64,000 nt of DNA from Tagaea sp. (GCA_044224405.1 JBGAKN010000001.1:416973-480972), one strand, 5' to 3'. Shown: positions 9,456 to 62,607, numbered from the stretch's first letter. The notes: a model not told the origin generated them from the letters alone. Made by a program: numbers and translations.

Positions 9456-10226
9456 TTGGTCAAGCAAAGCACGCCGTTCTTCGTGGCCCTGGGCGGGCGC
9501 AAGCTGCACGCGGTCCGCATTGACGGGCCGGAGGCGCCGCCGCTCGTGTTCCTGCACGAAGGGCTCGGCTCGATTCCCCAGTGGCGCGACTTTCCCGTCG
9601 CCCTGTGCGCGGCCGCGGCGCGCCCCGGCCTCGTCTACGAACGCTTCGGCCACGGCAAGTCGTCGCCGATGGCAGGGCCGCGTACCGTGGGCTATCTGCA
9701 CGACGAGGCGACGACGCTGCTCGCCATCCTCGACGCGCTCTCGATCCCGAGGGCCGATCTCGTCGGCCATTCCGACGGCGGATCGATCGCGCTGCTGGCG
9801 GCGGCGCGGGCACCTTCGCGCATCGGGCGGCTGGCCACGATCGCGGCGCACGTGCTGGTCGAGGACGTGACGATCGCCGGCATCCGGGCGGCCCAGCTCA
9901 CCTATGCGGGCACCGACCTGCGCGAACGGCTCGCGCGCTATCATGGCGAGGGGACCGACGCGCTGTTCCGCGCGTGGGCCGACACGTGGCTGTCGGCGCC
10001 GTTCCGCGACTGGAACATCGAGAAGGAGCTGCGCCTGCTGACCTCGCCCGTGCTGGCCCTGCAGGGCGAGGGCGACGAATACGGCACGCTCGACCAGCTC
10101 CAGCGCATCAAGGCGGCGGTCGGTGGCCCGTGCGTGACGTGGGCGGTGCCCAAGACCGCGCACCATCCCCACCTGCAGGCGCGCGCCGAAGTGCTCGACC
10201 GGCTGGCGGCGTTCTTCCGGGTCTAG
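9456..10226 (+). CDS. Alpha/beta-fold hydrolase
   Basis: GHSDGG nucleophile elbow, C-terminal conserved His, about 256 aa; TTG start with GAAAGG RBS. Confidence 0.75.
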
Positions 10227-10251
10227 GCGGGGCGGGTCCAGGCGCCCGGGG

Positions 10252-12816
<2,565 letters not shown>

Positions 12817-13026
12817 ATCCTTTCGGCAGGCAAACGCCCCCGATTTGGGCCCCAATATGCTCCGGCGACGGTTAACAAGTGTTTGACGCGCAACCGCTTC
12901 CGCCGGGGGCGCAGGGCCCGGCCGCCGGGCGCGCCTTCCCCCGGCAGCACTTCAATGAAAAGGGCGGGCGTGCTATCCAGTGGGCCGCCTTTTCTTTTGC
13001 ATCAGGGATATAGGGGAGATCTGCCC

Positions 13027-15717
<2,691 letters not shown>

Positions 15718-34536: not shown

Positions 34537-34574
34537 CCGGATTGGTGGTAACGTACTACATCCGGGAGTTGTTC

Positions 34575-35423
34575 ATGCGTTCCGTGTCCGTCGGCCTTTT
34601 CGCGTCCCTCTTTCTTGCTGTCGGTATCCAGGGGGCCGTCGCCCAAACCGAGGGTGGCCCGCGCGTGGTGCCGACATTCGGCCAGGTCACGCTGACACCG
34701 CATTTCGGAACCGAAGTCCCGCTCGCCGGATTGATGACCAAGTCCGGCCGGGCCCGGGTGAGCCCGTTCGAGCCGTTCTCCGGCATCGTCTTCGACAATC
34801 CCGGCTTCGTCGACGTAAAGAGCATGAAGTTCCGCGACCTCTACGGCGCGCCGCTCGAAGTCGGCATCGGCGTCGCTTACGGCGTGTCCGCCAACGGCGA
34901 AGTTTTCGGAAACATCCGGTACATGCATGCCGCCGGCCAGAAGACGACGGTCGGCTCGATCTCGGTCACGGGCTCCGTCGGCGGCGTCGGCTACCTTGGC
35001 GGCGCGGCACTGATCGCCACGCCCGACAATTTCTCGGCCGGTTCGGCCGAGATCGGCTACCGCCATTTCCTCGCGACGGGCGGGCCGCTGCTTCCCTATG
35101 TCGCGGGCATGGCCGGCGTCACCCGGACGGGCGCGATCGATGCCCAGATTTTCGTCGATGGCGGCGCCAACGGCGAGCTGAAGGGGGGGCGCGTCAAGAT
35201 CTATGACGGGACGATCGCCGCGACGAGCGGGCTCCAGCTCGGCGTCACCTACGTGCTTTCGCCGCAGTCTTCGGTCGGCATCGAGACCGGAATCCGGTAC
35301 GACGCGAAGCTGAAAGGCGACGATACGATGCTCGGTCTCGGCGATGGCGGCCTTGCGCGCATCAACAACACCGGCAGCCGCTGGTCGGCGCCGATGCGTC
35401 TGACCGCCCGCCTCGCGTTCTGA
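34575..35423 (+). CDS. Outer-membrane beta-barrel protein (porin/OmpW-like), paralog 1
   Basis: Signal peptide, alternating amphipathic beta-strands, C-terminal Phe (..RLTARLAF); RBS GGGAG. Confidence 0.7.
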   Translation: MRSVSVGLFASLFLAVGIQGAVAQTEGGPRVVPTFGQVTLTPHFGTEVPLAGLMTKSGRARVSPFEPFSGIVFDNPGFVDVKSMKFRDLYGAPLEVGIGVAYGVSANGEVFGNIRYMHAAGQKTTVGSISVTGSVGGVGYLGGAALIATPDNFSAGSAEIGYRHFLATGGPLLPYVAGMAGVTRTGAIDAQIFVDGGANGELKGGRVKIYDGTIAATSGLQLGVTYVLSPQSSVGIETGIRYDAKLKGDDTMLGLGDGGLARINNTGSRWSAPMRLTARLAF

Positions 35424-36313
35424 TGCCGATGCGCGCGCTCGCCCCCGCCGCCGTCCTTCTCGCCCTCGCCGGGCCTGCCGTCGGCCAGACGAACAACGCG
35501 CCCCGCACGGTACCCGTGGCCGGGCAGTTCACGGCGTCGCCATTCGTCGGGACGGATGCCTCCGTCGGCGGCCGGATGCTGCGGCAGACGGAAATCCGCT
35601 CGCCTGGCGCCGGGAACATCCAGATCGTGACCGGCGGTCCCGAAATCTCGTTTCTCGTCCCGAACAGGCCGGCCCTCACCTTTCACGACATATCGTTCGG
35701 CAAACTGTACGAAGCGCCGCGTGAAATCGGTCTCGGTTTCGCCTACGCGATCGTGGATCGCGGGGAAATCTTCGCGAGCTTGCGGCATGTCCATGCCAGT
35801 CCGCGTAACGCGATCATCGGCGAAGTGGCGGAAAACACGACCGCTGGCGTCGTGGGCGGCCCCAATTTCAGATCGCGCGACGAAATCCGCGCCAAAGCCG
35901 GTACGTTCAATGCGACGACGGTCGAGGCGGGATACCGCCATTTCTTCCAGACTTCTTCTTCGTTCGCGCCCTATGTCGCCGGTTCGGCCGGCGCGACCTA
36001 CCTGCCTGCGGTCGCTGTCGATCTTCTCATCCGCAACGCGCGGACGGCTGCCGGCGAGGTCGAGGGCAGGGATTTCTCGATCGGCAAGATGAACATGTTC
36101 GACAGGACATTCGCGCCGACATTCGGCGTCGAGATCGGCGCCACCTACAGCCTGACGGACGGGATGTCGATCGGGGTCGAGACGGGCCTGCGGTATACGG
36201 CACGCCCTCGGCAGAACGACAGCCAGTTCGCCCATGCGCCGGCGGTCGGCCTCAACGACGCGACCGAGCGGTACTCGATCCCGTTCCGTCTCTCCGGCCG
36301 GATCGCGTTCTAG
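35423..36313 (+). CDS. Outer-membrane beta-barrel protein, paralog 2 (tandem duplicate)
   Basis: Signal peptide MPMRALAPAAVLLALAGPAVGQ; shared blocks AGYRHF, PYVAG, C-terminal RLSGRIAF; start overlaps previous stop (TGATG). Confidence 0.7.
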   Translation: MPMRALAPAAVLLALAGPAVGQTNNAPRTVPVAGQFTASPFVGTDASVGGRMLRQTEIRSPGAGNIQIVTGGPEISFLVPNRPALTFHDISFGKLYEAPREIGLGFAYAIVDRGEIFASLRHVHASPRNAIIGEVAENTTAGVVGGPNFRSRDEIRAKAGTFNATTVEAGYRHFFQTSSSFAPYVAGSAGATYLPAVAVDLLIRNARTAAGEVEGRDFSIGKMNMFDRTFAPTFGVEIGATYSLTDGMSIGVETGLRYTARPRQNDSQFAHAPAVGLNDATERYSIPFRLSGRIAF

Positions 36314-36354: not shown

Positions 36355-37341
36355 CTAACGGGCGATCGCCCGCTTGATGATCCAACCGGCGACGCTGTTC
36401 GCCGGGATCGAGATCAGCATCCACTCGGCCGTCTCTTCGGCGACGAGCGCGCGGTAGTTGCCGGCCGGCAGCGTGGCGCGCTGCTCGCAACTCGTGCCCG
36501 CGCACCGGCGCACGTTGGTCTTGCCGGAAATGCGCAGCACGCGCAGCTCGGCGTCCCGTGCGGGCGGCGACAGGGGTGCGGGCGGGGCGAGCAGGTCGGG
36601 TCGCGGCCCGCCATGCGGCGCCAGGTTCAACGGCCGGTCGCCCATCAGCGGCAACGCGAAACGCCCGTCGCCCAGCTGCGCCACCGCGCGCAGGTGCGGC
36701 GCCTCGCAGCGTGGCAGGTGCGCCACGGCAAGACGCGCAGCCCAGCCCGAGACCCCGAGATTGGGGTGTGCCGCGCGCGCCACGTCGGGGCGCGGCCGGT
36801 CGACCTTCACCGTCGCGACGACCGCGCCGCACACCGCGATCGCCACGTTGCGCGCGCGCCAGCCCAGATCGCCGTCGCCCGCCCAGCCGGAAATTTCGAG
36901 GATGTCGTTGTCGCCCAGCGTGCGTCCGCCGTCGCCCAGCGCGTCGATCCAGCCGCCGACCGCCTGCCCGATGCGCCAGTCCGTCAGCGGATAGGTGCGC
37001 TCCGCGCTGTCGACGACGCGCGCGGGTGACGCGGGCGGCGGCGGTGCGGCGGCAGGCGGCGGGGCCGGCAACGCGGCGACGGGTGCAGGTGCCGCGGCGA
37101 CGGGTGCCGGCGAAGCTGCGGCCGGTGCGGGCGCAGGCGCAGGCGCAGGTGCAGGCGCCGCGGGCGCGGCCGCGCGTGCCGGCGGCGGCGGTGGGGCAGG
37201 CTTGGGCGCCGGCGGCGGGAGATTCGCGACGGCGGCGGGCAGCGGGCCGGGATCTGTCGTGACGATCCAGAAGCTCGCGGCACCCGCGATGCCGAGGATC
37301 GCGACGAAGACGACGAGCCAGATGCGGCCGAGCGCCTCCAT
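36355..37341 (-). CDS. Membrane-anchored hypothetical protein with long Pro/Ala-rich linker
   Basis: N-terminal TM helix, (AP)n low-complexity region encoded by GGYGCA hexanucleotide repeats (about 37040-37200), C-terminal globular region with 4 Cys; ATG 3 nt after Ldh_2 gene stop. Confidence 0.55.
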   Translation of the reverse strand: MEALGRIWLVVFVAILGIAGAASFWIVTTDPGPLPAAVANLPPPAPKPAPPPPPARAAAPAAPAPAPAPAPAPAAASPAPVAAAPAPVAALPAPPPAAAPPPPASPARVVDSAERTYPLTDWRIGQAVGGWIDALGDGGRTLGDNDILEISGWAGDGDLGWRARNVAIAVCGAVVATVKVDRPRPDVARAAHPNLGVSGWAARLAVAHLPRCEAPHLRAVAQLGDGRFALPLMGDRPLNLAPHGGPRPDLLAPPAPLSPPARDAELRVLRISGKTNVRRCAGTSCEQRATLPAGNYRALVAEETAEWMLISIPANSVAGWIIKRAIAR

Positions 37342-37344
37342 CGC

Positions 37345-38403
37345 CTATCCCCCGAGATACGAGTCCGGATCGAGCTTCAGGCTCCGCGCGAGTTCGGCAA
37401 GCTGCGCCCAGTTGCCCGCGTCGATGGGGATCATCGCGGCCCGCGCCTTGCGCGCGCGCAGTTCGGGCTCGCCCGGCAGCATCACGTCGCCGGTGCTGGA
37501 TTTGAGCCAGGCCTCCAGCCGCTCGGCCTCGCCGGTGATGTAATCGGCCGTGCCGAGCGCCGCGGGATCGATGGCGACGGCGATCGCGTTGTTGACGATG
37601 CGCCGCGTCGTCGGCGGGATGCTGGCGATCGTGCCGCCGCCGCCCAGCGCCCCGGTGAACAGCTCGATCAGCGCCGAGAGCGCATAGCCCTTGTGCGCCG
37701 CCATCGTCAGCAGCGCGCCCGACGGGCGGTCCTCGCGGAACATCACGCCCGGATCGTTGGTGGGCTTGCCCTCGGCGTCGATGAGAATGCCGTCATCGAC
37801 CGGCACGCCCTTGTTGAAGGCGACGCGCACCTTGCCCACCGCGATGCGGCTCGTCGCCATGTCGGCGACGATGGGCGGGCGGCCCTTCACGGGCAGGCCG
37901 ATGCAGATCGGGTTGGTGCCAAGCCGCCCTTCGCGCCCGCCGGTGGGCGCCACCTTGGCGTCCACGCCCGCCACGTCCACCACGAAGAACGAGGCGAGGC
38001 CGTGGCGCGCGGCCTGCTCGGCCCAGGCGCCGATGCGCCCGATATGGTGCGTGTTGCGCAGCGCCATCACGGCCGCGCCCGCGCTCTTCGCCTTGGCGCA
38101 GAGCAGTTCGGTCGCCTCGGTCATGATCGTCTGGCCGTAGCCGCGGTTGCCGTCGACGACGAGCGTCGCGGCCGTCTGCGAGACGACGGTGAGCTTCGCG
38201 CCAAGTTCCAGCACGCCGCGGCGCACCGCGTCGATATAGATCGGCAGCATGCCCACGCCGTGCGAATCGTGGCCCGTGAGGTTCGCGTCGACCAGATTGT
38301 CGGCGACCGTCTTCGCCTCGCCGTCGGCCGAACCGGCCGCCTTGCAGATCGCGGTGCCGAGGGCGCGCAGCCGGTCAGGCGAAATCGAAACGTCGTTTGC
38401 CAT
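37345..38403 (-). CDS. Ldh_2 family (malate/L-lactate/sulfolactate-type) NAD(P)H-dependent 2-hydroxyacid dehydrogenase
   Basis: LTGHDSHGVGMLP and HKGYALS motifs of the Ldh_2 family; 352 aa; 2-nt gap after upstream gene stop. Confidence 0.8.
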   Translation of the reverse strand: MANDVSISPDRLRALGTAICKAAGSADGEAKTVADNLVDANLTGHDSHGVGMLPIYIDAVRRGVLELGAKLTVVSQTAATLVVDGNRGYGQTIMTEATELLCAKAKSAGAAVMALRNTHHIGRIGAWAEQAARHGLASFFVVDVAGVDAKVAPTGGREGRLGTNPICIGLPVKGRPPIVADMATSRIAVGKVRVAFNKGVPVDDGILIDAEGKPTNDPGVMFREDRPSGALLTMAAHKGYALSALIELFTGALGGGGTIASIPPTTRRIVNNAIAVAIDPAALGTADYITGEAERLEAWLKSSTGDVMLPGEPELRARKARAAMIPIDAGNWAQLAELARSLKLDPDSYLGG

Positions 38404-38405
38404 GT

Positions 38406-40109
38406 TCAGGCCACCCACTCGGAGACAGGGGCCTTGGCTTCGTGCAGCGGCTGGCAGATCACGTCGACCAGCGTGGGCCCGCCATGCGCGAACGCCTCGG
38501 CCAGCGTGGATCTGAGTTTCGCAGGATCTTCCACGCGCCAACTCCTCAATCCGAACGCGGCCGCGACGGCCGCATGGTCGGTCCGGTTGAAATCGACCGA
38601 GAAATAACGCTGCCCGTAGCCGGTCTTCTGCCCGGCCTTGATCCAGCCATAGACGGCGTTCGACACGACGACGAGCGTGACCGGCAGGTTGAGCCTGGCG
38701 ATCGTCTCCATCTCGCCGCACGCGAAGCCGAAGCTGCCGTCGCCCATGACGGCGACGCATTTCGATTGCGGGCGCGCGATGGCCGCACCCACGACGGCGG
38801 GCAGCGAATAGCCCAGCGCCCCGTGCGCGCGGTTCGTCACGAACCAGCGCCCGGTGCGGCGCTTGGGATAGAAGGCCGAGAAATAGGGGCAGGGCGTGCC
38901 CGGATCGGCGACGATGACGGCGTCTTCCGGAAGCAGCGCCGCCATTTCGGCCACCAGCCGCTCGGGCTTGATCGGCGTGTCGTTCGACTGCGCCAGCGCC
39001 ATGAACGCCGCTTCGCGCTCCTTGCGTGCGGCCGCCACGCGCGCCGCCGCGTCGGAAGCGACCGCCTTCTTGCCGAGTGCGGCGACGAGCATCCCGAGTG
39101 CCAGCTTCGCGTCGCCCACCACGCCCGCCTTGGTCGGATAGATGGCGCCGATCACGGCGGGGTCCACGTCCACATGCACGATGGTCGTGCCCTTGGCAGG
39201 GAAGCGCCAGCGCTCGGTCGTCACCGACCCTGCGCGGCAGCCGATGAACAGCACGAGGTCGGCTGCCTGCACGAGTGCACGCGTCGGCATCGTGCCGCCG
39301 TTCGATCCGACCACGCCGGCCGAAAGGGGATGCGAATCTTCGATCGAGCCCTGGCCCGAGATCGTGGTGAGCACGACCGCGCCCAGCCGCTCGGCCAACG
39401 CACGCAGTTCGGGCTCGGCGTTCGAGATGACGACACCACCACCCACGACGATGACAGGCACCTTCGCCGCGCTCAACGTCTTCGCCGCGCGCTCGATATC
39501 GGCGGGATCGGGCGCCACGCGATGCGAGGGATAGCTGCCGTGCGCGGGCTCGCCCCACATGTCGGCCTCGTCCACCGCGTCCTTCTGCACGTCATAGGGC
39601 AGGCCCAGATGAACGGCACCGGGGCGCCCGCTCGTCGCCTCGCGGAAGGCGCGGCGCACGATCGACGGGATATCGACCGCACGGTCGATCACCGTGTTCC
39701 ACTTGGTCACGGGCTTGAACAGCGCCTTCTGGTCGAGTTCGGTCAGCGTGTATTTGCCGCGCGAGGAGACCGAGATGTCGGTCGTCACGGCCAGCATCGC
39801 GACGGAGGATTCGTTCGCCTCCGCCACCGCGGGGAGGATATAGGTGGCCCCGCCGCCCGACGGCCCTTCGCACACGCCGACCTTGCCGGTCAGCCGCGCA
39901 TAGGTATCGGCCATGTAGCCGGCCGAGCGTTCGTCGCGCGTCAGGATGTGCCGGATGCCGTGGCCGCCGGCCCCGCCGAGGCGCGCGAGCGCGTCGTAGA
40001 GCGGCAGGCTGGTATCGCCGCACAGACCGAACACGTGATCGACGCCGTGCGCCGCCAGAAGCTTCACGAAAGCCTCGGCGCCGCCGAGCCTGTTGCCGGA
40101 ACCATCCAT
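38406..40109 (-). CDS. Thiamine-pyrophosphate-dependent enzyme of the acetolactate synthase / sulfoacetaldehyde acetyltransferase family
   Basis: N-terminal Pyr domain (GAEAFVKLLAAHGVDHVFGLCGD), central FAD-like domain, C-terminal TPP motif GDGSFGF..N(26)..NN-like; start at the ATG for MDGSGN. Confidence 0.8.
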   Translation of the reverse strand: MDGSGNRLGGAEAFVKLLAAHGVDHVFGLCGDTSLPLYDALARLGGAGGHGIRHILTRDERSAGYMADTYARLTGKVGVCEGPSGGGATYILPAVAEANESSVAMLAVTTDISVSSRGKYTLTELDQKALFKPVTKWNTVIDRAVDIPSIVRRAFREATSGRPGAVHLGLPYDVQKDAVDEADMWGEPAHGSYPSHRVAPDPADIERAAKTLSAAKVPVIVVGGGVVISNAEPELRALAERLGAVVLTTISGQGSIEDSHPLSAGVVGSNGGTMPTRALVQAADLVLFIGCRAGSVTTERWRFPAKGTTIVHVDVDPAVIGAIYPTKAGVVGDAKLALGMLVAALGKKAVASDAAARVAAARKEREAAFMALAQSNDTPIKPERLVAEMAALLPEDAVIVADPGTPCPYFSAFYPKRRTGRWFVTNRAHGALGYSLPAVVGAAIARPQSKCVAVMGDGSFGFACGEMETIARLNLPVTLVVVSNAVYGWIKAGQKTGYGQRYFSVDFNRTDHAAVAAAFGLRSWRVEDPAKLRSTLAEAFAHGGPTLVDVICQPLHEAKAPVSEWVA

Positions 40110-40263
40110 TTTTAAGCGAGTCCCCCGTTGGAAGGCCGCATCGGGCCACGCGCCGGGCATCACTGTCAACCCGACGCTTTCCCGTTTGCGGCCGGGCGGT
40201 TACGCCCTATTCTGCCGCCTGAACGCGCATCCTTCGACAAGGCGCGAAACGGAGTGGAACCCC

Positions 40264-41757
40264 ATGAAGACCCTCGGCCATTTCATCGCCGGCAAGGCGA
40301 CGCCCGGCACCTCGGGCCGCACCGCGCCCGTGTTCAATCCCGCGACCGGCGAGCAGCAGGCTTCCGTGGCGCTGGCCAGTGCCGCGGAAGTGAACGCGGC
40401 CGTCGCCAATGCCGCCGCCGCTTATGAAGGCTGGTCGGCGACGCCGCCGCTGCTGCGCGCACGCGTGCTGTTCAAGTTCAAGGAACTGCTGGAGAAGCGC
40501 CGCGACGACATCGCGAAGCTCATCACCGCCGAACACGGCAAGACCTTCGACGACGCCAAGGGCGAACTGGTGCGCGGGCTCGAGGTCGTCGAGTTCGCCT
40601 GCGGCATCCCGCACCTGCTGAAAGGCGAGTTCACCGAAAACGTGGGCCGCAACATCGACTCGTTCTCGGTGCGCCAGTCGCTGGGCGTCGTCGCCGGCAT
40701 CACGCCGTTCAACTTCCCCGTCATGGTGCCGATGTGGATGTTCCCCGTCGCCATCGCGTGCGGCAACAGCTTCATCCTGAAGCCGTCGGAGAAGGACCCG
40801 AGCCCCGGCCTGCTGCTGGCCGAGATCGCGCTCGAGGCGGGCCTGCCGCCCGGCGTGCTCAACGTGGTCAACGGCGACAAGGAAGCCGTCGACACGATCC
40901 TCAACCACCCGAAGATCCAGGCCGTCAGCTTCGTCGGCTCCACGCCCATCGGCGAGTACGTCTACAAGACGGGTGCCGCCGCCGGAAAGCGCGTGCAGGC
41001 GCTGTGCGGGGCGAAGAACCACATGGTCATCATGCCCGACGCCGACATGGACCAGGCGACGGACGCGCTGATGGGGGCGGGCTACGGCTCGGCCGGCGAG
41101 CGCTGCATGGCGATCTCGGTCGCCGTCGCGGTCGGCAAGGCGGGCGATGCGCTGATGGAACGCCTCGTGCCGAAGGTGCAGGCGCTGAAAGTCGGCCCCG
41201 GCATGGACCCGGCCAGCGAGATGGGCCCGCTCGTCACCAAGGAACATCTCGCCAAGGTGAAGGGCTATGTCGATATCGGCGTGAAGGAGGGCGCGAAGCT
41301 CGCGGTCGACGGGCGCGGCCTGAAGCTGCAGGGCTACGAGGGCGGCTACTTCATCGGCGGCACGCTGTTCGACAACGTGACGCCCGACATGCGCATCTAC
41401 AAGGAAGAGATCTTCGGCCCCGTGCTGTCGGTCGTGCGCGCGAAGAACTTCGACGAGGCGATCAAGCTGGTCAACGACCACGAATACGGCAACGGCACCG
41501 CGATCTACACGCGCGACGGCGACAGCGCGCGCACCTTCCAGCAGAACGTGCAGGCCGGCATGGTCGGCATCAACGTGCCGATCCCGGTGCCGATGGCCTT
41601 CCACAGCTTCGGCGGTTGGAAGCGCTCGATCTTCGGCGACCGCAACGCCTACGGGCCGGAAGGCGTCGGCTTCTACACGAAGCTCAAGACCACGACGGCG
41701 CGGTGGCCGACGGGGCTGCGCGCGGGCGCCGAGTTCGTGATGCCGACGATGAAGTGA
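40264..41757 (+). CDS. mmsA: Methylmalonate-semialdehyde dehydrogenase (CoA-acylating)
   Basis: ALDH superfamily with catalytic ..GERCMAISV.. and MmsA-typical N-terminus MKTLGHFIAGK; 497 aa. Confidence 0.9.
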   Translation: MKTLGHFIAGKATPGTSGRTAPVFNPATGEQQASVALASAAEVNAAVANAAAAYEGWSATPPLLRARVLFKFKELLEKRRDDIAKLITAEHGKTFDDAKGELVRGLEVVEFACGIPHLLKGEFTENVGRNIDSFSVRQSLGVVAGITPFNFPVMVPMWMFPVAIACGNSFILKPSEKDPSPGLLLAEIALEAGLPPGVLNVVNGDKEAVDTILNHPKIQAVSFVGSTPIGEYVYKTGAAAGKRVQALCGAKNHMVIMPDADMDQATDALMGAGYGSAGERCMAISVAVAVGKAGDALMERLVPKVQALKVGPGMDPASEMGPLVTKEHLAKVKGYVDIGVKEGAKLAVDGRGLKLQGYEGGYFIGGTLFDNVTPDMRIYKEEIFGPVLSVVRAKNFDEAIKLVNDHEYGNGTAIYTRDGDSARTFQQNVQAGMVGINVPIPVPMAFHSFGGWKRSIFGDRNAYGPEGVGFYTKLKTTTARWPTGLRAGAEFVMPTMK

Positions 41758-43722: not shown

Positions 43723-44085
43723 TCAGTTATACGAAGGCTTTGGAACGACGAGGCCGGCGAAGGACTGCATGACGATCCGCCCGCCGCGCACCTGGAACGT
43801 GTCGGTCGCCAGCTCGTAGGTGTTGTCGGCCGTCTCGCCGTGCCAGAGGATGAAGGCGTATTCGCCGACGATGGACTGGTAATCCAGCGCGAAGCTCGCC
43901 CCCGGCTTGGCGAATTCGGCGAGCATCGCCTCGAACATCGGGCGGATCATCGCCTGCCCCTGCAGCGGCCCGCGCGGCGTGAACAGCACGGCGTCGGGCG
44001 CATAGTCGGCGACGATCGCATCGAGATCGCCGCGACCGAACGCCGCAATATGGTTGTCGAGAATGGCCTTGGTCGTCGGCTGCAT
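43723..44085 (-). CDS. SnoaL-like / NTF2-family protein
   Basis: 120 aa, NTF2-like fold signature (..[16 protein letters not shown]..). Confidence 0.7.
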
Positions 44086-44239
44086 GGTGCGCGTCCCCGG
44101 TTTCGTGGACGTATTTACGATCCGCGCGCGCCCACCTCGAATTGCCGTCCGTCCGATTGGAATGACCGTTCTTCCGAATTTGCCTGCAACATCCTATATT
44201 TGTAGTCCATCCTCTCGCCCCCCGAAGAAGGACCCGCCC

Positions 44240-44875
44240 ATGACCGCTTCCGGCACGGCCGATCTGAAGACGCACCGCACGCCCGACGGCGTGTCGGATC
44301 GCATCGCGCTGGCGATCACGAAGATCCTGCGCTTCTTCGCCGACACGTTCTTCGCCAAGCGCTATGGCCATCGCGCGATCGTGCTCGAGACGGTCGCGGC
44401 CGTGCCCGGCATGGTGGGGGCGGCGCTGGTGCATCTCAAATGCCTGCGCCGCATGTCGGACGATCACGGGTGGATCCGCACGCTGCTCGACGAGGCCGAG
44501 AACGAGCGCATGCACCTGATGACCTTCATCGAGATCGCCAGGCCCAACGCGTTCGAGCGTTTCCTCGTCGTGCTGGTGCAGGGCGTGTTCTACAACGCGT
44601 TCTTCGTCCTCTATCTTCTCGCGCCCAAGACCGCGCATCGGGTCGTCGGCTATTTCGAGGAAGAGGCCGTGATCAGCTACACCGAATATCTCGCCGGCAT
44701 CGATGCGGGCCAGCACGCCAACGTGCCCGCACCCGCGCGCGCGAAGGAATACTGGAAGCTCGCGCCCGATGCCACGCTGCGCGACGTGGTGATCGCCGTG
44801 CGCGCCGACGAGGCCGGGCACCGCGACGTCAACCACCGCTTCGCCGACGCGCTTGCGCAGGGTGGGCCGGCGTAA
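44240..44875 (+). CDS. aox: Alternative oxidase (cyanide-insensitive ubiquinol oxidase), di-iron carboxylate protein
   Basis: Iron-binding motifs [11 protein letters not shown] and [12 protein letters not shown]; 211 aa; RBS GAAGGA. Confidence 0.85.
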
Positions 44876-45228: not shown

Positions 45229-46842
45229 TCAGGCGCGGGCATCCTCCAGGATCATCGTGGCAGCCTTCTCGGCGATCATGATCGTCGGCGCGTTGGTGTT
45301 GCCTGACGTGATCGTCGGCATCACCGAGGCATCCGCCACGCGGCATCCCGCAAGGCCACGCAAGGCGAGCCGCGCATCGACCACCGCGCCGTCGTCGGCC
45401 CCCATCCGGCAGGTGCCGACGGGATGGAAAATAGTCGTTCCGATCTTTCCGGCCGCCTCGACGAGTGCCGAATCGCTCGTGAATTCCGGCCCCGGGCGGA
45501 ACTCCTCGGGCCGGAAGCGGCGCAGCGCCGGCGCCGCGACGATCCGCCGCGTGAGCCGGATCGCCTCGGCCGCGACATGCCGGTCGGCGTCGGTCGAAAG
45601 ATAGTTGGGCCGGATCGCGGGCGCGGCGTTCGCATCGGCGGACTTGATGCGCACATGGCCGCGGCTCGTGGGCCGCAGATTGCAGACCGAGGCGGTGAAG
45701 GCGGGGAAGCTGTGCAGCGGCTCGCCGAACCTGTCGAGGCTTAGCGGCTGCACGTGATACTCGAGATCGGGTGTGGCCTTCGCCGGGTCCGACTTCGCGA
45801 ACGCGCCAAGCTGGGAAGGCGCCATCGTCAGCGGGCCGCGCTTGAACAGCGCGTATTCCAGCGCCATGCCGATCTTGCCCGTCCAGCTGTGGACGCGCTC
45901 GTTGAGAGTCTTCGTGCCGCTCACCTTGTAGGCGCAGCGGATCTGCAGATGGTCCTGCAGGTTCTCGCCGACGCCCGGTGCAGCATGCGCGACGCCGATG
46001 CCGTGCTGCGCCAGCAGCGCCGGATCGCCGATGCCCGAAAGCTGCAGGATCTGCGGCGAGCCGATGGCGCCGGCCGCGAGCACGACCTCGCGCGCGGCAT
46101 CCGCTCTCGCCGGCGCGCCGTCGAGCGTGAACTCGATGCCGGTCACGCGGCCATCCGAAAGCGTGAGGCGGCCCGCCTGCGCCTTCGTCAGCACGCGCAG
46201 GTTGGGCCTTCCCATCGCGGGGCGCAGGAAGCCCTTGGCCGTCGTCCAGCGCACGCCGCGGTTCTGGTTCACCTGGAAATAGGCGCAGCCGTGATTGTCG
46301 CCGCGGTTGAAGTCGTCGATCTTGGGGATGCCGGTCTCGGCCGCGGCCTCGCGGAACGCGTCGAGGATCTCCCATGAAAGGCGCATCTCCTCGACGCGGA
46401 ACTCGCCGCCCGATCCGTGCAGCGCGTCGCCCGCGAAGCGCACGTTGTCTTCCGACTTGCGGAAGAAGGGCAGCACGTCGTCCCACGCCCAGCCCGTCAG
46501 GCCGAGCTGGCGCCAATGGTCGTAGTCGGCCGCCTGTCCGCGCATGTAGATCATGCCGTTGATCGCGGTACAGCCGCCCAGCACCTTGCCGCGCGGATAG
46601 CCGAGCGCGCGGTTGCCGAGGCCGGGCTCGATCTCGGTCCTGAAGCACCAGTCCACGCGCGGATTGCCGTGCGAATAGATGTAGCCGATGGGCACGTCGA
46701 TCCAGAAATAGTCGTCCTTGCCGCCGGCCTCGAGCAGCAGCACGCGGTTCTTCGGATCGGCCGACAGCCGGTTGGCGAGCACGCAGCCGGCCGAGCCCGC
46801 GCCCACGACGATATAGTCGTACGTGCCCAGATGCGCGCTCAT
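45229..46842 (-). CDS. GMC-family FAD-dependent oxidoreductase (choline/alcohol dehydrogenase-like)
   Basis: N-terminal YDYIVVGAGSAGCVLANRLS, GMC signatures, C-terminal active-site His region (IFHPVGTCRMG). Confidence 0.85.
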   Translation of the reverse strand: MSAHLGTYDYIVVGAGSAGCVLANRLSADPKNRVLLLEAGGKDDYFWIDVPIGYIYSHGNPRVDWCFRTEIEPGLGNRALGYPRGKVLGGCTAINGMIYMRGQAADYDHWRQLGLTGWAWDDVLPFFRKSEDNVRFAGDALHGSGGEFRVEEMRLSWEILDAFREAAAETGIPKIDDFNRGDNHGCAYFQVNQNRGVRWTTAKGFLRPAMGRPNLRVLTKAQAGRLTLSDGRVTGIEFTLDGAPARADAAREVVLAAGAIGSPQILQLSGIGDPALLAQHGIGVAHAAPGVGENLQDHLQIRCAYKVSGTKTLNERVHSWTGKIGMALEYALFKRGPLTMAPSQLGAFAKSDPAKATPDLEYHVQPLSLDRFGEPLHSFPAFTASVCNLRPTSRGHVRIKSADANAAPAIRPNYLSTDADRHVAAEAIRLTRRIVAAPALRRFRPEEFRPGPEFTSDSALVEAAGKIGTTIFHPVGTCRMGADDGAVVDARLALRGLAGCRVADASVMPTITSGNTNAPTIMIAEKAATMILEDARA

Positions 46843-47089
46843 GCGCCGGCCCTGAATCCGATCGCGCGGCTGCCGGTGATGTTGCCCAGGATCGCCCGCC
46901 AGGGCAGGCCCTTGGGGCCGACATGCGCCAGCACTGTTTCCGACGCGAGATGTCGCCCGACGCCGCCCGGCGCGTTTCCCGCGGCGATCCAGAGATGGAT
47001 TCCCATGCGATTTCCGTCCCTTGGCCCCGACTGGCACGCGAGGCCCGCAATCGTTAAACTGGTCGAGCTTAACAGGCTTGGAATTGAAT

Positions 47090-47935
47090 TTGCGAGTTCG
47101 GCTTTTCACGGTGTTCTGTCTGGTTCTGGCGGCCACGGGCGCGTTCGCCCAGGGAAGTCCGGCCGGCGGACCGGTCCATCCGGTGCCGGCGATGGGCGCT
47201 TCGACGGAGATCGTGGCCGCACGCTGCGAGGTGCCGTCCGAGATGCTGCGCCTGCGCTTCCCGCTGCCGCGCGTCGCGCGACGACTGGCGGAAGGGAAGT
47301 CGCTCACCATCGTCGCCCTCGGCTCGTCCTCGACCGAAGGGGCGGGTGCCTCGAGCCCGGCGCTCACCTATCCCGCGCGCCTCGAGGCCGAGCTCCACGC
47401 GCTCTTCCCGCACATGGCGATCACCGTCATCAACCGCGGCGTCAGCGGCGAGGAAGCGGGTGCCATGTACAAGCGCATCGAGCGCGACGTCGTCGCCGCC
47501 GAACCCGACCTGATGATCTGGCAGGCCGGCGTCAACGCGGCGATCAGGGATTCGCCGCTCGACGAGTTCGCCGAGACGATGACGGCAGGCATCGAGAAGG
47601 CGAAGGCGCACGGCATCGACGTGATGCTGCTGGGCCCGCAGAACGCGCCGCGCTACGTCAACGCGCCGCACCGGCGCGAATACTCCGATCACCTGATGCT
47701 GATCAGCCGCGCCAAGGAAGTGCCGATCTTCCCGCGCTTCCGCGTGATGAACCACTGGCAGGCGACCGGCCAGATCGTGGCGAAGGACGCCATCGCCGCC
47801 GACCGGCTGCACATGACCGACGCAAGCTACTACTGCATCGCCAACCTGCTCGCGCGCACGATCGCCTCGGCGCTGCCGCCGCCGGCACCGGTGGCCGTGC
47901 CGAGCGCCAAGCCGCACGCGGCGGCGCTGCGCTAG
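47090..47935 (+). CDS. SGNH/GDSL-family hydrolase, secreted
   Basis: Signal peptide then GSSSTEG block I and C-terminal DxxH; start probably a TTG (MRVRLF..), coordinate +/-1. Confidence 0.6.
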   Translation: MRVRLFTVFCLVLAATGAFAQGSPAGGPVHPVPAMGASTEIVAARCEVPSEMLRLRFPLPRVARRLAEGKSLTIVALGSSSTEGAGASSPALTYPARLEAELHALFPHMAITVINRGVSGEEAGAMYKRIERDVVAAEPDLMIWQAGVNAAIRDSPLDEFAETMTAGIEKAKAHGIDVMLLGPQNAPRYVNAPHRREYSDHLMLISRAKEVPIFPRFRVMNHWQATGQIVAKDAIAADRLHMTDASYYCIANLLARTIASALPPPAPVAVPSAKPHAAALR

Positions 47936-61078: not shown

Positions 61079-61152
61079 TGGAGCGGGTGAAGGGAATCGA
61101 ACCCTCGTATGCAGCTTGGGAAGCTGCCGTTCTACCATTGAACTACACCCGC
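61079..61152 (-). tRNA. tRNA-Gly (anticodon CCC)
   Basis: Reverse complement GCGGGTGTAGTTCAATGGTAGAACGGCAGCTTCCCAAGCTGCATACGAGGGTTCGATTCCCTTCACCCGCTCCA folds as a cloverleaf with anticodon loop TTCCCAA and encoded CCA. Confidence 0.85.
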
Positions 61153-61209: not shown

Positions 61210-61238
61210 TTGACAGCCCCGGCCCGAGCGCCTAGTTT
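61210..61238 (+). promoter_or_regulatory. Candidate sigma70 promoter TTGACA-N17-TAGTTT driving the metZ leader
   Basis: Hexamers read directly just upstream of the riboswitch-like leader. Confidence 0.4.
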
Positions 61239-61244
61239 CCGGCT

Positions 61245-61300
61245 CCGTGGTGATTTGAGCCGGCCGGCTTGCGGACCACGTTAAAGAAACCGCTAAAAGG
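61245..61300 (+). ncRNA. SAM-II-like riboswitch in the metZ 5' leader
   Basis: GAUUUGAGCC..GGCUUGC..ACGUUAAAGAAACCGCUAAAAGG matches the conserved SAM-II core as I recall it (GCUUGC, AAAG, GCUAAAA); upstream of a methionine-biosynthesis gene. Confidence 0.55.
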
Positions 61301-61330
61301 TCGGAGCGTTTCGCGAGCGCATGCCCGCCG

Positions 61331-61360
61331 AACAGCCCCGGACCAAGAGGCCGGGGTTTT
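61331..61360 (+). terminator. Terminator-like hairpin (CCCCGG-ACCAAGAGG-CCGGGG-UUUUU) between riboswitch and metZ start; possible expression platform
   Basis: Read directly; lies inside the longer ORF-track frame, so the downstream ATG 61378 start is preferred. Confidence 0.45.
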
Positions 61361-61377
61361 TGATTCGGGGTAACGCG

Positions 61378-62607
61378 ATGGCAAAGAAAAACGAGTTTTC
61401 GACCGATCCGGCCTGGCGGGCGGGCACGGCCCTTGTGCATGGCGGCACCGAGCGTTCGCAATGGTCGGAGACCGGCGAGGCGATGTTCCTGACGTCGGGC
61501 TTCGTCTATGGCTCGGCCGGCGAGGCCGAACGCGCCTTTGCGACGCCGACCAAGCTCGAGGATCAGCGCTTCGTCTATTCGCGCTTCGGCAACCCGACGG
61601 TCGCGATGTTCGAGGCGCGGCTCGCCGCACTCGAAGGTGCCGAAGCCTGCAAGGGCACGGCCAGTGGCATGGCCGCGGTGTTCGCGGCGCTCGCCTGCCA
61701 GCTCAAGTCGGGCATGCGCGTCGTTTCGGCCCGCGCGCTGTTCGGCTCGTGCCACTACATCGTCACCGAGCTGCTGCCGCGCTGGGGCATCGAGACCGTG
61801 CTGGTCGATGGCCCGGATCTAAGCGCATGGAAGAAGGCGCTGTCGGTCAAGACCGACGTCGTGTTCCTCGAATCGCCGTCCAACCCGATGCTCGACCTCG
61901 TCGACATAAAGGGCGTCGCGAAGCTCGCGAAGAAGGCGGGCGCCAAGGTCGTCGTCGACAACGTGTTCGCCACGCCGCTTCTTCAGAAGCCGCTGGAGCT
62001 GGGTGCCGACGTCGTCGTCTATTCGGCGACCAAGCACATCGACGGGCAGGGGCGCGTGCTCGGCGGCGCCGTGCTGGGTTCGCGCGCGTGGATCGAGGGC
62101 ACGTTCGTGCCGTTCATCCGCCACACGGGCCCGACGCTGTCGGCGTTCAATGCATGGGTGCTGCTGAAGGGGCTCGAGACGTTGCCGCTGCGCGTCGCGG
62201 CGCATTCGCGCAACGCTCTCGCCGTCGCAAAGCATCTCGAGAAGGCGCGCGCCGTGGCGCGCGTGCTCTATCCCGGGCTCAAGTCGCATCCCCAGCATGC
62301 GCTGGCGCGCCGGCAGATGAAGGACGGCGGCCCGCTCGTCGCCTTCGATCTCAAGGGCGGCAAGAAGGCGGCCTTCGCGTTCGTCGATGCGCTCAAGCTC
62401 ATCCGCATTTCCAACAATCTCGGCGATGCCAAGAGCCTGATCTGCCATCCCGCGACCACGACCCATCAGCGCCTGCCGGCCGACGAGAAGGCCCGCCTGC
62501 GCATCGGGCCGGGCAGCCTGCGGCTGTCGGTGGGGATCGAGGACACGGCCGATCTCGTCGAGGATCTGGCCCGCGGTCTCGCGGCTGCCGCGAAGGCCAC
62601 GCGCTAG
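61378..62607 (+). CDS. metZ: O-succinylhomoserine sulfhydrylase / cystathionine gamma-synthase family PLP enzyme
   Basis: PLP-lysine block (..SATKHIDGQGR..), full-length homology to MetZ. Confidence 0.85.
   Translation: MAKKNEFSTDPAWRAGTALVHGGTERSQWSETGEAMFLTSGFVYGSAGEAERAFATPTKLEDQRFVYSRFGNPTVAMFEARLAALEGAEACKGTASGMAAVFAALACQLKSGMRVVSARALFGSCHYIVTELLPRWGIETVLVDGPDLSAWKKALSVKTDVVFLESPSNPMLDLVDIKGVAKLAKKAGAKVVVDNVFATPLLQKPLELGADVVVYSATKHIDGQGRVLGGAVLGSRAWIEGTFVPFIRHTGPTLSAFNAWVLLKGLETLPLRVAAHSRNALAVAKHLEKARAVARVLYPGLKSHPQHALARRQMKDGGPLVAFDLKGGKKAAFAFVDALKLIRISNNLGDAKSLICHPATTTHQRLPADEKARLRIGPGSLRLSVGIEDTADLVEDLARGLAAAAKATR

Follow-up and report, generated by a model that had tools for sequence, protein, structure and literature searches.

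A conserved three-gene operon of the Tagaea lineage predicted to combine an uncharacterised acetolactate synthase-like thiamine diphosphate enzyme with a YbiC/HcxB-type dehydrogenase

The 64,000-nucleotide stretch of Tagaea sp. DNA analysed here (GCA_044224405.1, JBGAKN010000001.1:416973-480972; hereafter the window) contains, on its minus strand, three tightly packed genes encoding a thiamine diphosphate (ThDP)-dependent enzyme resembling acetolactate synthase (ALS; TPP gene), a dehydrogenase of the Ldh_2 family (Ldh_2 gene), and a Pro/Ala-rich membrane protein (P3). Comparison with related loci shows these genes to form an operon that, at the sequence level, is conserved in and specific to the Tagaea lineage, and homology identifies the first of its enzymes as a member of the ALS-like ThDP group that is new at the family level and the second as a divergent HcxB-family protein. 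The function tentatively preferred here, held with somewhat less than even confidence, is that the two enzymes work consecutively in an oxidative order, with the dehydrogenase converting a 2-hydroxyacid to a 2-oxoacid that the ThDP enzyme would then decarboxylate. The locus appears to fall within known kinds of system, as an ordinary small-acid metabolic module, and the view of the original prediction, made from the sequence alone, that the pathway cannot be assigned on that basis is upheld. The window is rich in GC (about 68%), and its nearest public relatives are metagenome-assembled genomes (MAGs) labelled Tagaea sp. (Rhodospirillales), with 95% protein identity.

The three genes follow one another almost without interruption (Table 1). 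The junction between the TPP and Ldh_2 genes reads TGA-AC-ATG (gap of 2 nt) and that between the Ldh_2 and P3 genes TAG-GCG-ATG (gap of 3 nt), and a public contig encoding an identical ThDP protein, on which genes were called independently, has the same three genes with equal lengths. A scan of one genome per species returned 232 stretches with relatives of the ThDP enzyme, the best 80 of which were taken for comparison (loci numbered with the prefix L); 12 of these belong to the Tagaea clade (L001-L011 and L020) and 68 lie outside it. With the window proteins as tblastn queries, the Ldh_2 gene was found after the TPP gene only in the 12 Tagaea-clade loci, where the ThDP protein is 79-95% identical to that of the window. 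The TPP gene/Ldh_2 junction is a gap of 1-2 nt or a 13-nt overlap in all ten loci in which it was read (L001-L003, L005, L007-L011, and L020), with adjacency alone also seen in L004 and L006, and the Ldh_2/P3 junction measures 2-5 nt in eight loci (L001, L002, L003, L005, and L007-L010). L011 and L020 keep the pair of enzyme genes but lack P3, the Ldh_2 stop codon being followed there by other DNA. The tricistronic unit is kept in about nine species, over which identity falls as low as 63% for Ldh_2 and about 44% for P3, and this retention across species despite divergence argues for an operon rather than an accident of one genome. The open reading frames (ORFs), the junctions, and their recurrence in the Tagaea clade thus confirm the three-gene arrangement originally described, and the ThDP enzyme and the Ldh_2 protein are evidently cytoplasmic enzymes whose genes are translationally coupled. 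ORF calling in the 80 loci was GC3-based and crude (the Ldh_2 gene of L012 was missed by it and recovered with tblastn); since such calls skip some genes, the neighbour counts given below are lower bounds.

The ThDP enzyme contains the Pfam domains TPP_enzyme_N, M, and C (122, 130, and 132 bits against cut-offs of 27, 30, and 22; E-values of 1e-35 to 1e-38), and these domains together with the cofactor motifs place it in the ALS/POX-like three-domain ThDP superfamily. Within the superfamily it falls below the curated cut-off of every NCBIfam model among the 25 listed of 59 matching. The best match is the PRK06112 subfamily (410 bits versus a cut-off of 673), and the enzyme scores 390.9 versus 538.35 with the model for biosynthetic acetohydroxyacid synthase (AHAS; TIGR00118), 330 versus 500 with that for 5-guanidino-2-oxopentanoate decarboxylase, 314.4 versus 791 with that for glyoxylate carboligase (Gcl; NF008431), and 294.7 versus 676.4 and 297.4 versus 620 with the two models for Xsc (TIGR03457 and NF005713, respectively); it is also under the cut-off in all remaining ALS large-subunit models. 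Among solved structures, the nearest are E. coli AHAS I (1.6e-72), BbmA, and glyoxylate carboligases (1e-67 to 1e-72; 6lpi, 2pan, 7ct6, and 8x3x), which share with the ThDP enzyme the three TPP_enzyme domains, a similar length, the GDGS...N motif and, except in Gcl, the catalytic Glu, but are only about 30% identical to it.

An alignment of 69 orthologues shows where the family departs from these enzymes. Glu60, which aligns with the Glu of the AHAS I HEQ motif and with a Val in the Gcl structure 7ct6, is present in all 68 orthologues covering the column, and the ThDP-Mg motif (GDGSFG...SNAVYG) is conserved throughout. The motifs LTELDQ, CRAGSVTTERW, DPGTPCPY, and NAVYGWIKAGQ are invariant or nearly so, the last two being the family's own when compared with AHAS, Gcl, and BbmA. 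In AHAS, the FQE and RFDDR residues have catalytic or active-site and herbicide-site roles; the corresponding positions of the ThDP enzyme read LTE and CRAGSV, invariantly among the 69 orthologues, so that the Gln common to AHAS, BbmA, and Gcl is an invariant Thr here. Orthologues in the 80 loci are 60-95% identical and are spread over the Alpha- and Betaproteobacteria. Thousands of relatives occur in a large protein database; the best 120 all show identities of 66% or more and bear the name "thiamine pyrophosphate-binding protein", the only one used by NCBI, or, in entries from JGI, "acetolactate synthase large subunit". The missed cut-offs, the distant structures, and the family-specific motifs therefore indicate that the enzyme belongs to a distinct, well-conserved, and uncharacterised ALS-like orthologous family, for which the JGI label is probably wrong. 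A biosynthetic AHAS, the identity against which the original prediction had set its own reading, is rejected, as TIGR00118 is missed, FQE and RFDDR are replaced, and the adjoining downstream gene is Ldh_2 rather than an ilvN-type small subunit; the enzyme does not appear to be an AHAS-type carboligase. Canonical Gcl is likewise rejected (the model is missed, and the Glu is kept where Gcl has Val), as are IolD (no such model is among the 25 listed of the 59 matching) and oxalyl-CoA decarboxylase (OXC) and 2-hydroxyacyl-CoA lyase (HACL), whose structures are weaker matches (1e-45 to 1e-56).

The second enzyme can be placed more closely. The Ldh_2 protein matches Pfam Ldh_2 (E of 1.3e-93) and passes the YbiC/HcxB equivalog model NF007504 (PRK10098; 384.8 versus 336, over residues 4-345 of 352). 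Its best PDB match, end to end, is 2g8y (4e-80), presumably E. coli YbiC, with the GHDSHG, HHIGRIG, and GTNP motifs aligned; the runner-up is the L-sulfolactate dehydrogenase 2x06 (5.9e-47). These similarities identify it as a YbiC/HcxB-type protein, predicted to be an NAD(P)-dependent 2-hydroxy/2-oxo-carboxylate oxidoreductase. The protein does not reach the model for the L-sulfolactate dehydrogenase ComC (NF040650; 198.1 versus 500) and is far under the cut-off for 3-dehydro-L-gulonate 2-dehydrogenase (NF009750), and ureidoglycolate dehydrogenase (AllD) is rejected because both models score well below their cut-offs on partial alignments (TIGR03175, 115.5 versus 496; NF011599, 117.3 versus 356). 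The Pfam domains of the two enzymes and the translation of P3 agree with the kinds of protein originally proposed. The window protein differs from other YbiC/HcxB proteins in forming a clade of its own: close orthologues (at least 64% identity) occur only beside the TPP gene and all within the Tagaea clade, while the next relatives, at most 53% identical, belong to the general HcxB family. Translational coupling to a ThDP enzyme is also peculiar to the window type, and around the one wider HcxB member checked in context the genes are unrelated and include none for a ThDP enzyme. For HcxB itself, little is certain about the physiological substrate.

The same scores bear on the sulfonate chemistry suggested by the original prediction, in which the Ldh_2 protein would be ComC/SlcC-like and the ThDP enzyme an Xsc-like acetyltransferase or sulfopyruvate decarboxylase. 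Sulfonate enzymes do exist in both superfamilies (Xsc and ComC/SlcC belong to the same two as the operon enzymes), the second PDB match of the Ldh_2 protein is a sulfolactate dehydrogenase, the Xsc models reach about 295 bits, and substrate specificity within these superfamilies is not revealed by sequence. However, the ThDP enzyme falls more than 300 bits short of both Xsc models, and more than ten other ThDP models score higher, while the Ldh_2 protein passes the YbiC/HcxB equivalog instead of the ComC model. The search for a sulfite exporter or pta gene nearby, proposed with that reading, was negative: in the ±10 kb around the operon, neither the window nor the 97%-identical locus L089 has a pta, TauE/SafE-type exporter, SuyAB, sulfite dehydrogenase, or sulfonate transporter gene, and none was seen among the crude gene calls of the 80 orthologous loci. 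Sulfolactate or sulfoacetaldehyde metabolism is thus very improbable for this operon.

Some insight into the chemistry is provided by the company that the ThDP family keeps in other lineages. Outside the Tagaea clade, the neighbours are varied but time and again catabolic in type, the commonest being a Glyoxalase_3-domain protein (23 of 68 loci, often divergent). In many Burkholderiales loci, a Co-type nitrile hydratase (α and β), an amidase (NF004815), and an acyl-CoA ligase lie near the ThDP orthologue, in clusters that also hold a thioesterase, PxpABC (5-oxoprolinase-like) homologues, and an OYE flavoprotein (e.g., L018, L021, L027, L034, L037, L046, L055, L068, L076, and L077); this nitrile hydratase/ThDP cluster appears to be uncharacterised. 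In six to seven loci, a DAO-type FAD dehydrogenase followed by a DctPQM TRAP transporter accompanies an orthologue that is 60-68% identical, with an aldehyde dehydrogenase and a short-chain dehydrogenase/reductase (SDR) upstream in two of them (L028 and L039), and in some loci an IlvD/Edd dehydratase adjoins the ThDP orthologue. In Thalassobaculum and BAL199, a MOFRL-type glycerate-kinase-like gene (best NCBIfam match glycerate 2-kinase, at 224 bits below the cut-off of 550) is divergent from the orthologue, with a LysR regulator and, nearby, a formate-tetrahydrofolate (THF) ligase. Finally, in L012 (an unclassified alphaproteobacterial MAG) and L062, the ThDP orthologue (72% identical) is the first gene of an operon continuing with an L-arabinonate dehydratase (NF009559, 998 versus 882), a different Ldh_2 protein, and a TAXI-TRAP transporter (L012 7001-14559). 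The Ldh_2 protein of this operon is only 34% identical to that of the window and reaches no equivalog model; the operon may represent an undescribed sugar-acid route with a ThDP enzyme and, as far as these sequences tell, is a second, independent ThDP-Ldh_2 pairing. The common thread among these neighbours seems to be that they make or import carboxylates that are 2-oxoacids or one step removed from them. A literature search (ybiC/HcxB, Tagaea, arabinonate dehydratase with thiamine, ALS-like proteins, and BbmA/CsmA) found nothing relevant.

In the oxidative order preferred here, the two enzymes would act in succession on one small carboxylate. The Ldh_2 protein would oxidise a 2-hydroxyacid to its 2-oxoacid, the ThDP enzyme would attack the 2-oxo group and, by decarboxylation, yield an aldehyde one carbon shorter, and the aldehyde would then be oxidised by a general aldehyde dehydrogenase, possibly the neighbouring MmsA in the closest relatives; P3, probably periplasmic, would be carried on the same transcript and remain outside the chemistry. 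This order was chosen because the ThDP orthologue elsewhere always lies downstream of a "feeder" enzyme, because aldehyde dehydrogenases recur in the neighbourhoods, and because the carboligation residues common to AHAS, BbmA, and Gcl are replaced. Several observations weigh against it. The characterised relatives of the ThDP enzyme are no closer than about 30% identity, so that a reaction type and substrate can only be proposed, and the neighbours of the family differ by lineage, none of them being universal. The independent association with an Ldh_2 gene is a single event, which by a rough reckoning over roughly 60 lineages would arise by chance in about 10% of cases, and only some members of the clade have an aldehyde dehydrogenase gene next to the operon. 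The tight coupling of P3, kept in eight species, leaves room for a role of this protein as well. Lastly, most characterised Ldh_2 enzymes (ComC, DpkA, YiaK, and HcxB) run in the reductive direction, so that the order could instead be formation of the ThDP product followed by its reduction.

This reverse order, in which the ThDP enzyme acts as a carboligase making a 2-oxo or α-hydroxy-carbonyl acid that the HcxB-type enzyme reduces with NAD(P)H, is considered possible but somewhat unlikely. Besides the habits of HcxB and its relatives, it draws on the gene order (TPP gene, then Ldh_2) and on the fact that the closest solved structures, AHAS I, BbmA, and Gcl, are all carboligases. The replacement of the Gln shared by these three carboligases with an invariant Thr speaks against such a reaction. 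A specific example would be the formation of tartronate semialdehyde or hydroxypyruvate from glyoxylate, as a non-orthologous analogue of the route through Gcl, GlxR, and glycerate kinase, and it is met with a similar degree of doubt. The DAO-type neighbours could provide glyoxylate, and the divergent glycerate-kinase-like gene of Thalassobaculum and BAL199 (below its cut-off) and the formate-THF ligase near it would be in keeping with such a route; however, the Gcl model is missed by a wide margin, the canonical Glu is kept where Gcl has Val, and the ±10 kb around the operon contain neither a tartronate-semialdehyde reductase nor a hydroxypyruvate isomerase gene.

It is also conceivable, albeit unlikely, that there is no shared pathway, and that two independent enzymes, housekeeping or orphan, and a periplasmic protein came to share a transcript through a rearrangement in the ancestor of Tagaea. 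Such an origin would be in line with the lack of an Ldh_2 neighbour in 66 of the 68 loci outside the clade, the solitary occurrence of HcxB homologues elsewhere, the unrelated surroundings (corA, gcrA, herA, alternative oxidase, and EamA genes), and the example of P3, which is just as tightly coupled and yet clearly separable. Mere proximity is harder to reconcile with a coupling that was kept while Ldh_2 diverged to the extent described above and that survives the rearranged flanks of L011 and L020. The Ldh_2 lineage found exclusively beside the TPP gene and the independent pairing in L012 and L062 point in the same direction and suggest a functional link between the two enzymes.

The consecutive oxidative scheme resembles, by analogy only, the mandelate module of Pseudomonas putida, a cluster that includes the dehydrogenase MdlB, the benzoylformate decarboxylase MdlC, the aldehyde dehydrogenase MdlD, and the amidase MdlY. 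The two share the proposed logic of hydroxyacid to oxoacid to aldehyde to acid, an ALS-like three-domain ThDP enzyme in the decarboxylase position, and, in other lineages of the ThDP family, amidase and aldehyde dehydrogenase neighbours. They differ in that structures of the benzoylformate decarboxylase type are weak matches (benzaldehyde lyase and formolase, about 1e-44 to 1e-47) and in that a predicted NAD(P)-dependent Ldh_2 protein takes the place of the FMN-dependent dehydrogenase. The substrate of the operon is probably aliphatic, unlike mandelate. There is a small chance that the chemistry of the ThDP family is itself new, either as a reaction so far undescribed among ThDP enzymes or as a familiar one applied to substrates of a new class; candidates for such substrates are 2-keto-3-deoxy sugar acids and 2-oxoacids derived from nitriles, amides, or D-amino acids.

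P3, the third gene product, starts with a hydrophobic helix and continues with a Pro/Ala-rich stretch of about 90 residues. It has no Pfam match at an E-value of 0.01 or better, and NCBIfam and PDB sequence searches returned nothing beyond low-complexity noise. A search of 5.8 billion proteins found only 27 homologues, almost all of them in the same clade; PF08239 (SH3_3) is present in two (P0257 and P0264), and two homologues are named "SH3 domain-containing protein". The AF2 model (pLDDT of 86) consists of a transmembrane helix (residues 2-28), a low-confidence linker (about 30-105), a β-sandwich (about 130-232), and a small β-barrel of five to six strands (about 266-322; pLDDT >90), and a Foldseek search of the PDB with this model gave no significant match, only weak Ig-like ones (E >0.01). 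P3 is therefore rejected as an enzyme or transporter and is predicted to be a signal-anchored protein with a disordered linker, a β-sandwich, and an SH3-like domain. Among the homologues, Cys171, Cys212, and Cys285 are invariant and Cys280 is nearly so, as are several Trp and Gly residues; the conserved Cys residues would fit an oxidising environment, and P3 probably faces the periplasm.

The original prediction remarked on this membrane-tethered partner as unusual. The membrane anchor and the coupling hold, but the partnership appears weak, since P3 and the enzymes are separable both ways: a Magnetovibrio homologue (38% identical) adjoins corA with no TPP or Ldh_2 gene there, and the enzymes occur without P3 in a sister clade (L011 and L020). 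Another P3 homologue follows a dTDP-sugar cluster. P3 thus probably shares the transcript but takes no part in the enzymology, and may be a cell-envelope protein that was originally encoded beside corA and was later joined by the inserted enzyme pair.

The operon and the divergent mmsA gene are separated by a short intergenic region, an alignment of which across seven Tagaea loci reveals two separate conserved blocks. On the operon side, the TTGACAGT box and TGGCCCGATG, 18 nt downstream, are both invariant; a second block lies on the mmsA side. Because a consensus promoter scan called no promoter in the region, the TTGACA/CCCGAT pair can only be proposed as the putative promoter of the operon. 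A shared operator is rejected, as the two separate blocks look like back-to-back promoters and no obvious palindrome is seen in the alignment. A terminator scan found no hairpins above background at the locus, including inside the operon, and no riboswitch or other RNA element is present at the operon.

Within ±10 kb, the P3 side of the operon contains herA-like, gcrA, and corA genes and two unassigned or outer membrane protein (OMP)-like genes, and the mmsA side contains mmsA, an EamA transporter, an SDR, a SnoaL-like protein, an alternative oxidase (AOX), and a GMC oxidoreductase. The product of mmsA is, on its model score, a true methylmalonate-semialdehyde dehydrogenase, and its divergent position, as originally described, stands (Table 1). 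The suggestion that the operon feeds MmsA is considerably weaker: among the loci compared, only L001-L003 and L005-L007 have mmsA divergent from the operon, at ThDP identities of at least 85% (with two ORFs interposed in L003), and it is replaced upstream of the TPP gene by a Na+/H+ exchanger in L008-L010 and by a GMC oxidoreductase in L011 and L020. This replacement leaves the MmsA link weak, and synteny across the Tagaea-clade loci rules out mmsA as a conserved partner. In the window, the GMC oxidoreductase gene lies about 5 kb from the operon, whereas in L011 (3966-5627) and L020 (3955-5706) it is directly upstream of and co-directional with the TPP gene; the difference suggests insertion or loss, between the GMC oxidoreductase and TPP genes, of the block running from mmsA through EamA, SDR, and SnoaL to AOX. 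The AOX gene is a few genes from the operon.

The two unassigned genes adjoining each other in the interval between P3 and corA (one with a weak OMP β-barrel match) look like a tandem paralogue insertion, with mutual cross-matches of 31-42% identity in L005, three copies in L089, and none in L001-L003. Elsewhere in the window, a SAM-alpha riboswitch lies directly upstream of a 436-aa ORF, slightly overlapping the ORF start, and a tRNA gene lies just upstream of the riboswitch on the opposite strand. A long open frame is an artefact of high GC content, in which only the C-terminal part is aconitase (Pfam from about residue 1041), and a PAS and dCache histidine kinase is encoded opposite it.

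Table 1. Positions of the operon genes, the upstream elements, and other features of the window
Feature	Position	Strand	Remarks
TPP gene (ThDP enzyme)	40109..38406	-	567 aa; operon gene 1
Ldh_2 gene	38403..37345	-	352 aa; ATG 2 nt past TPP gene stop
P3 gene	37341..36355	-	328 aa; Pro/Ala-rich membrane protein; third in operon
Divergent intergenic region, operon/mmsA	40110..40263	.	154 bp
TTGACA box	40169-40164	-	conserved; putative operon promoter
CCCGAT	40145-40140	-	18 nt past TTGACA box
mmsA	40264..41757	+	CoA-acylating methylmalonate-semialdehyde dehydrogenase; ATG at 40264; TIGR01722, 713 bits versus 448
Alternative oxidase (AOX)	44054-44875	+	Pfam 4.8e-83
GMC oxidoreductase	45229-47367	-	
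Unassigned gene	34542-35423	+	
Unassigned gene	35423-36313	+	
Open frame	10138-15717	+	1859 codons
PAS and dCache histidine kinase	10252-12951	-	
tRNA gene	61082-61152	-	
SAM-alpha riboswitch	61237-61316	+	71 bits versus gathering score of 36
ORF	61297-62607	+	436 aa

No long-standing open question hangs on this locus, and the comparison carries two cautions for the reading of similar operons, namely that the co-occurrence of an ALS-like enzyme and an Ldh_2 protein is by itself no sign of sulfonate metabolism, and that a tightly coupled downstream gene need not be a pathway partner. If the ThDP family does catalyse a new reaction or act on a new class of substrates, the Tagaea operon would represent this chemistry pared down to two enzymes, one of them a dedicated dehydrogenase derived from HcxB, and would offer a handle for discovering a new catabolic route. 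If the proposed module is right, it would provide a simple system of two soluble enzymes, one supplying the substrate of the other, for de-orphaning a widespread ThDP family, and would also give a physiological context for the YbiC/HcxB dehydrogenases.

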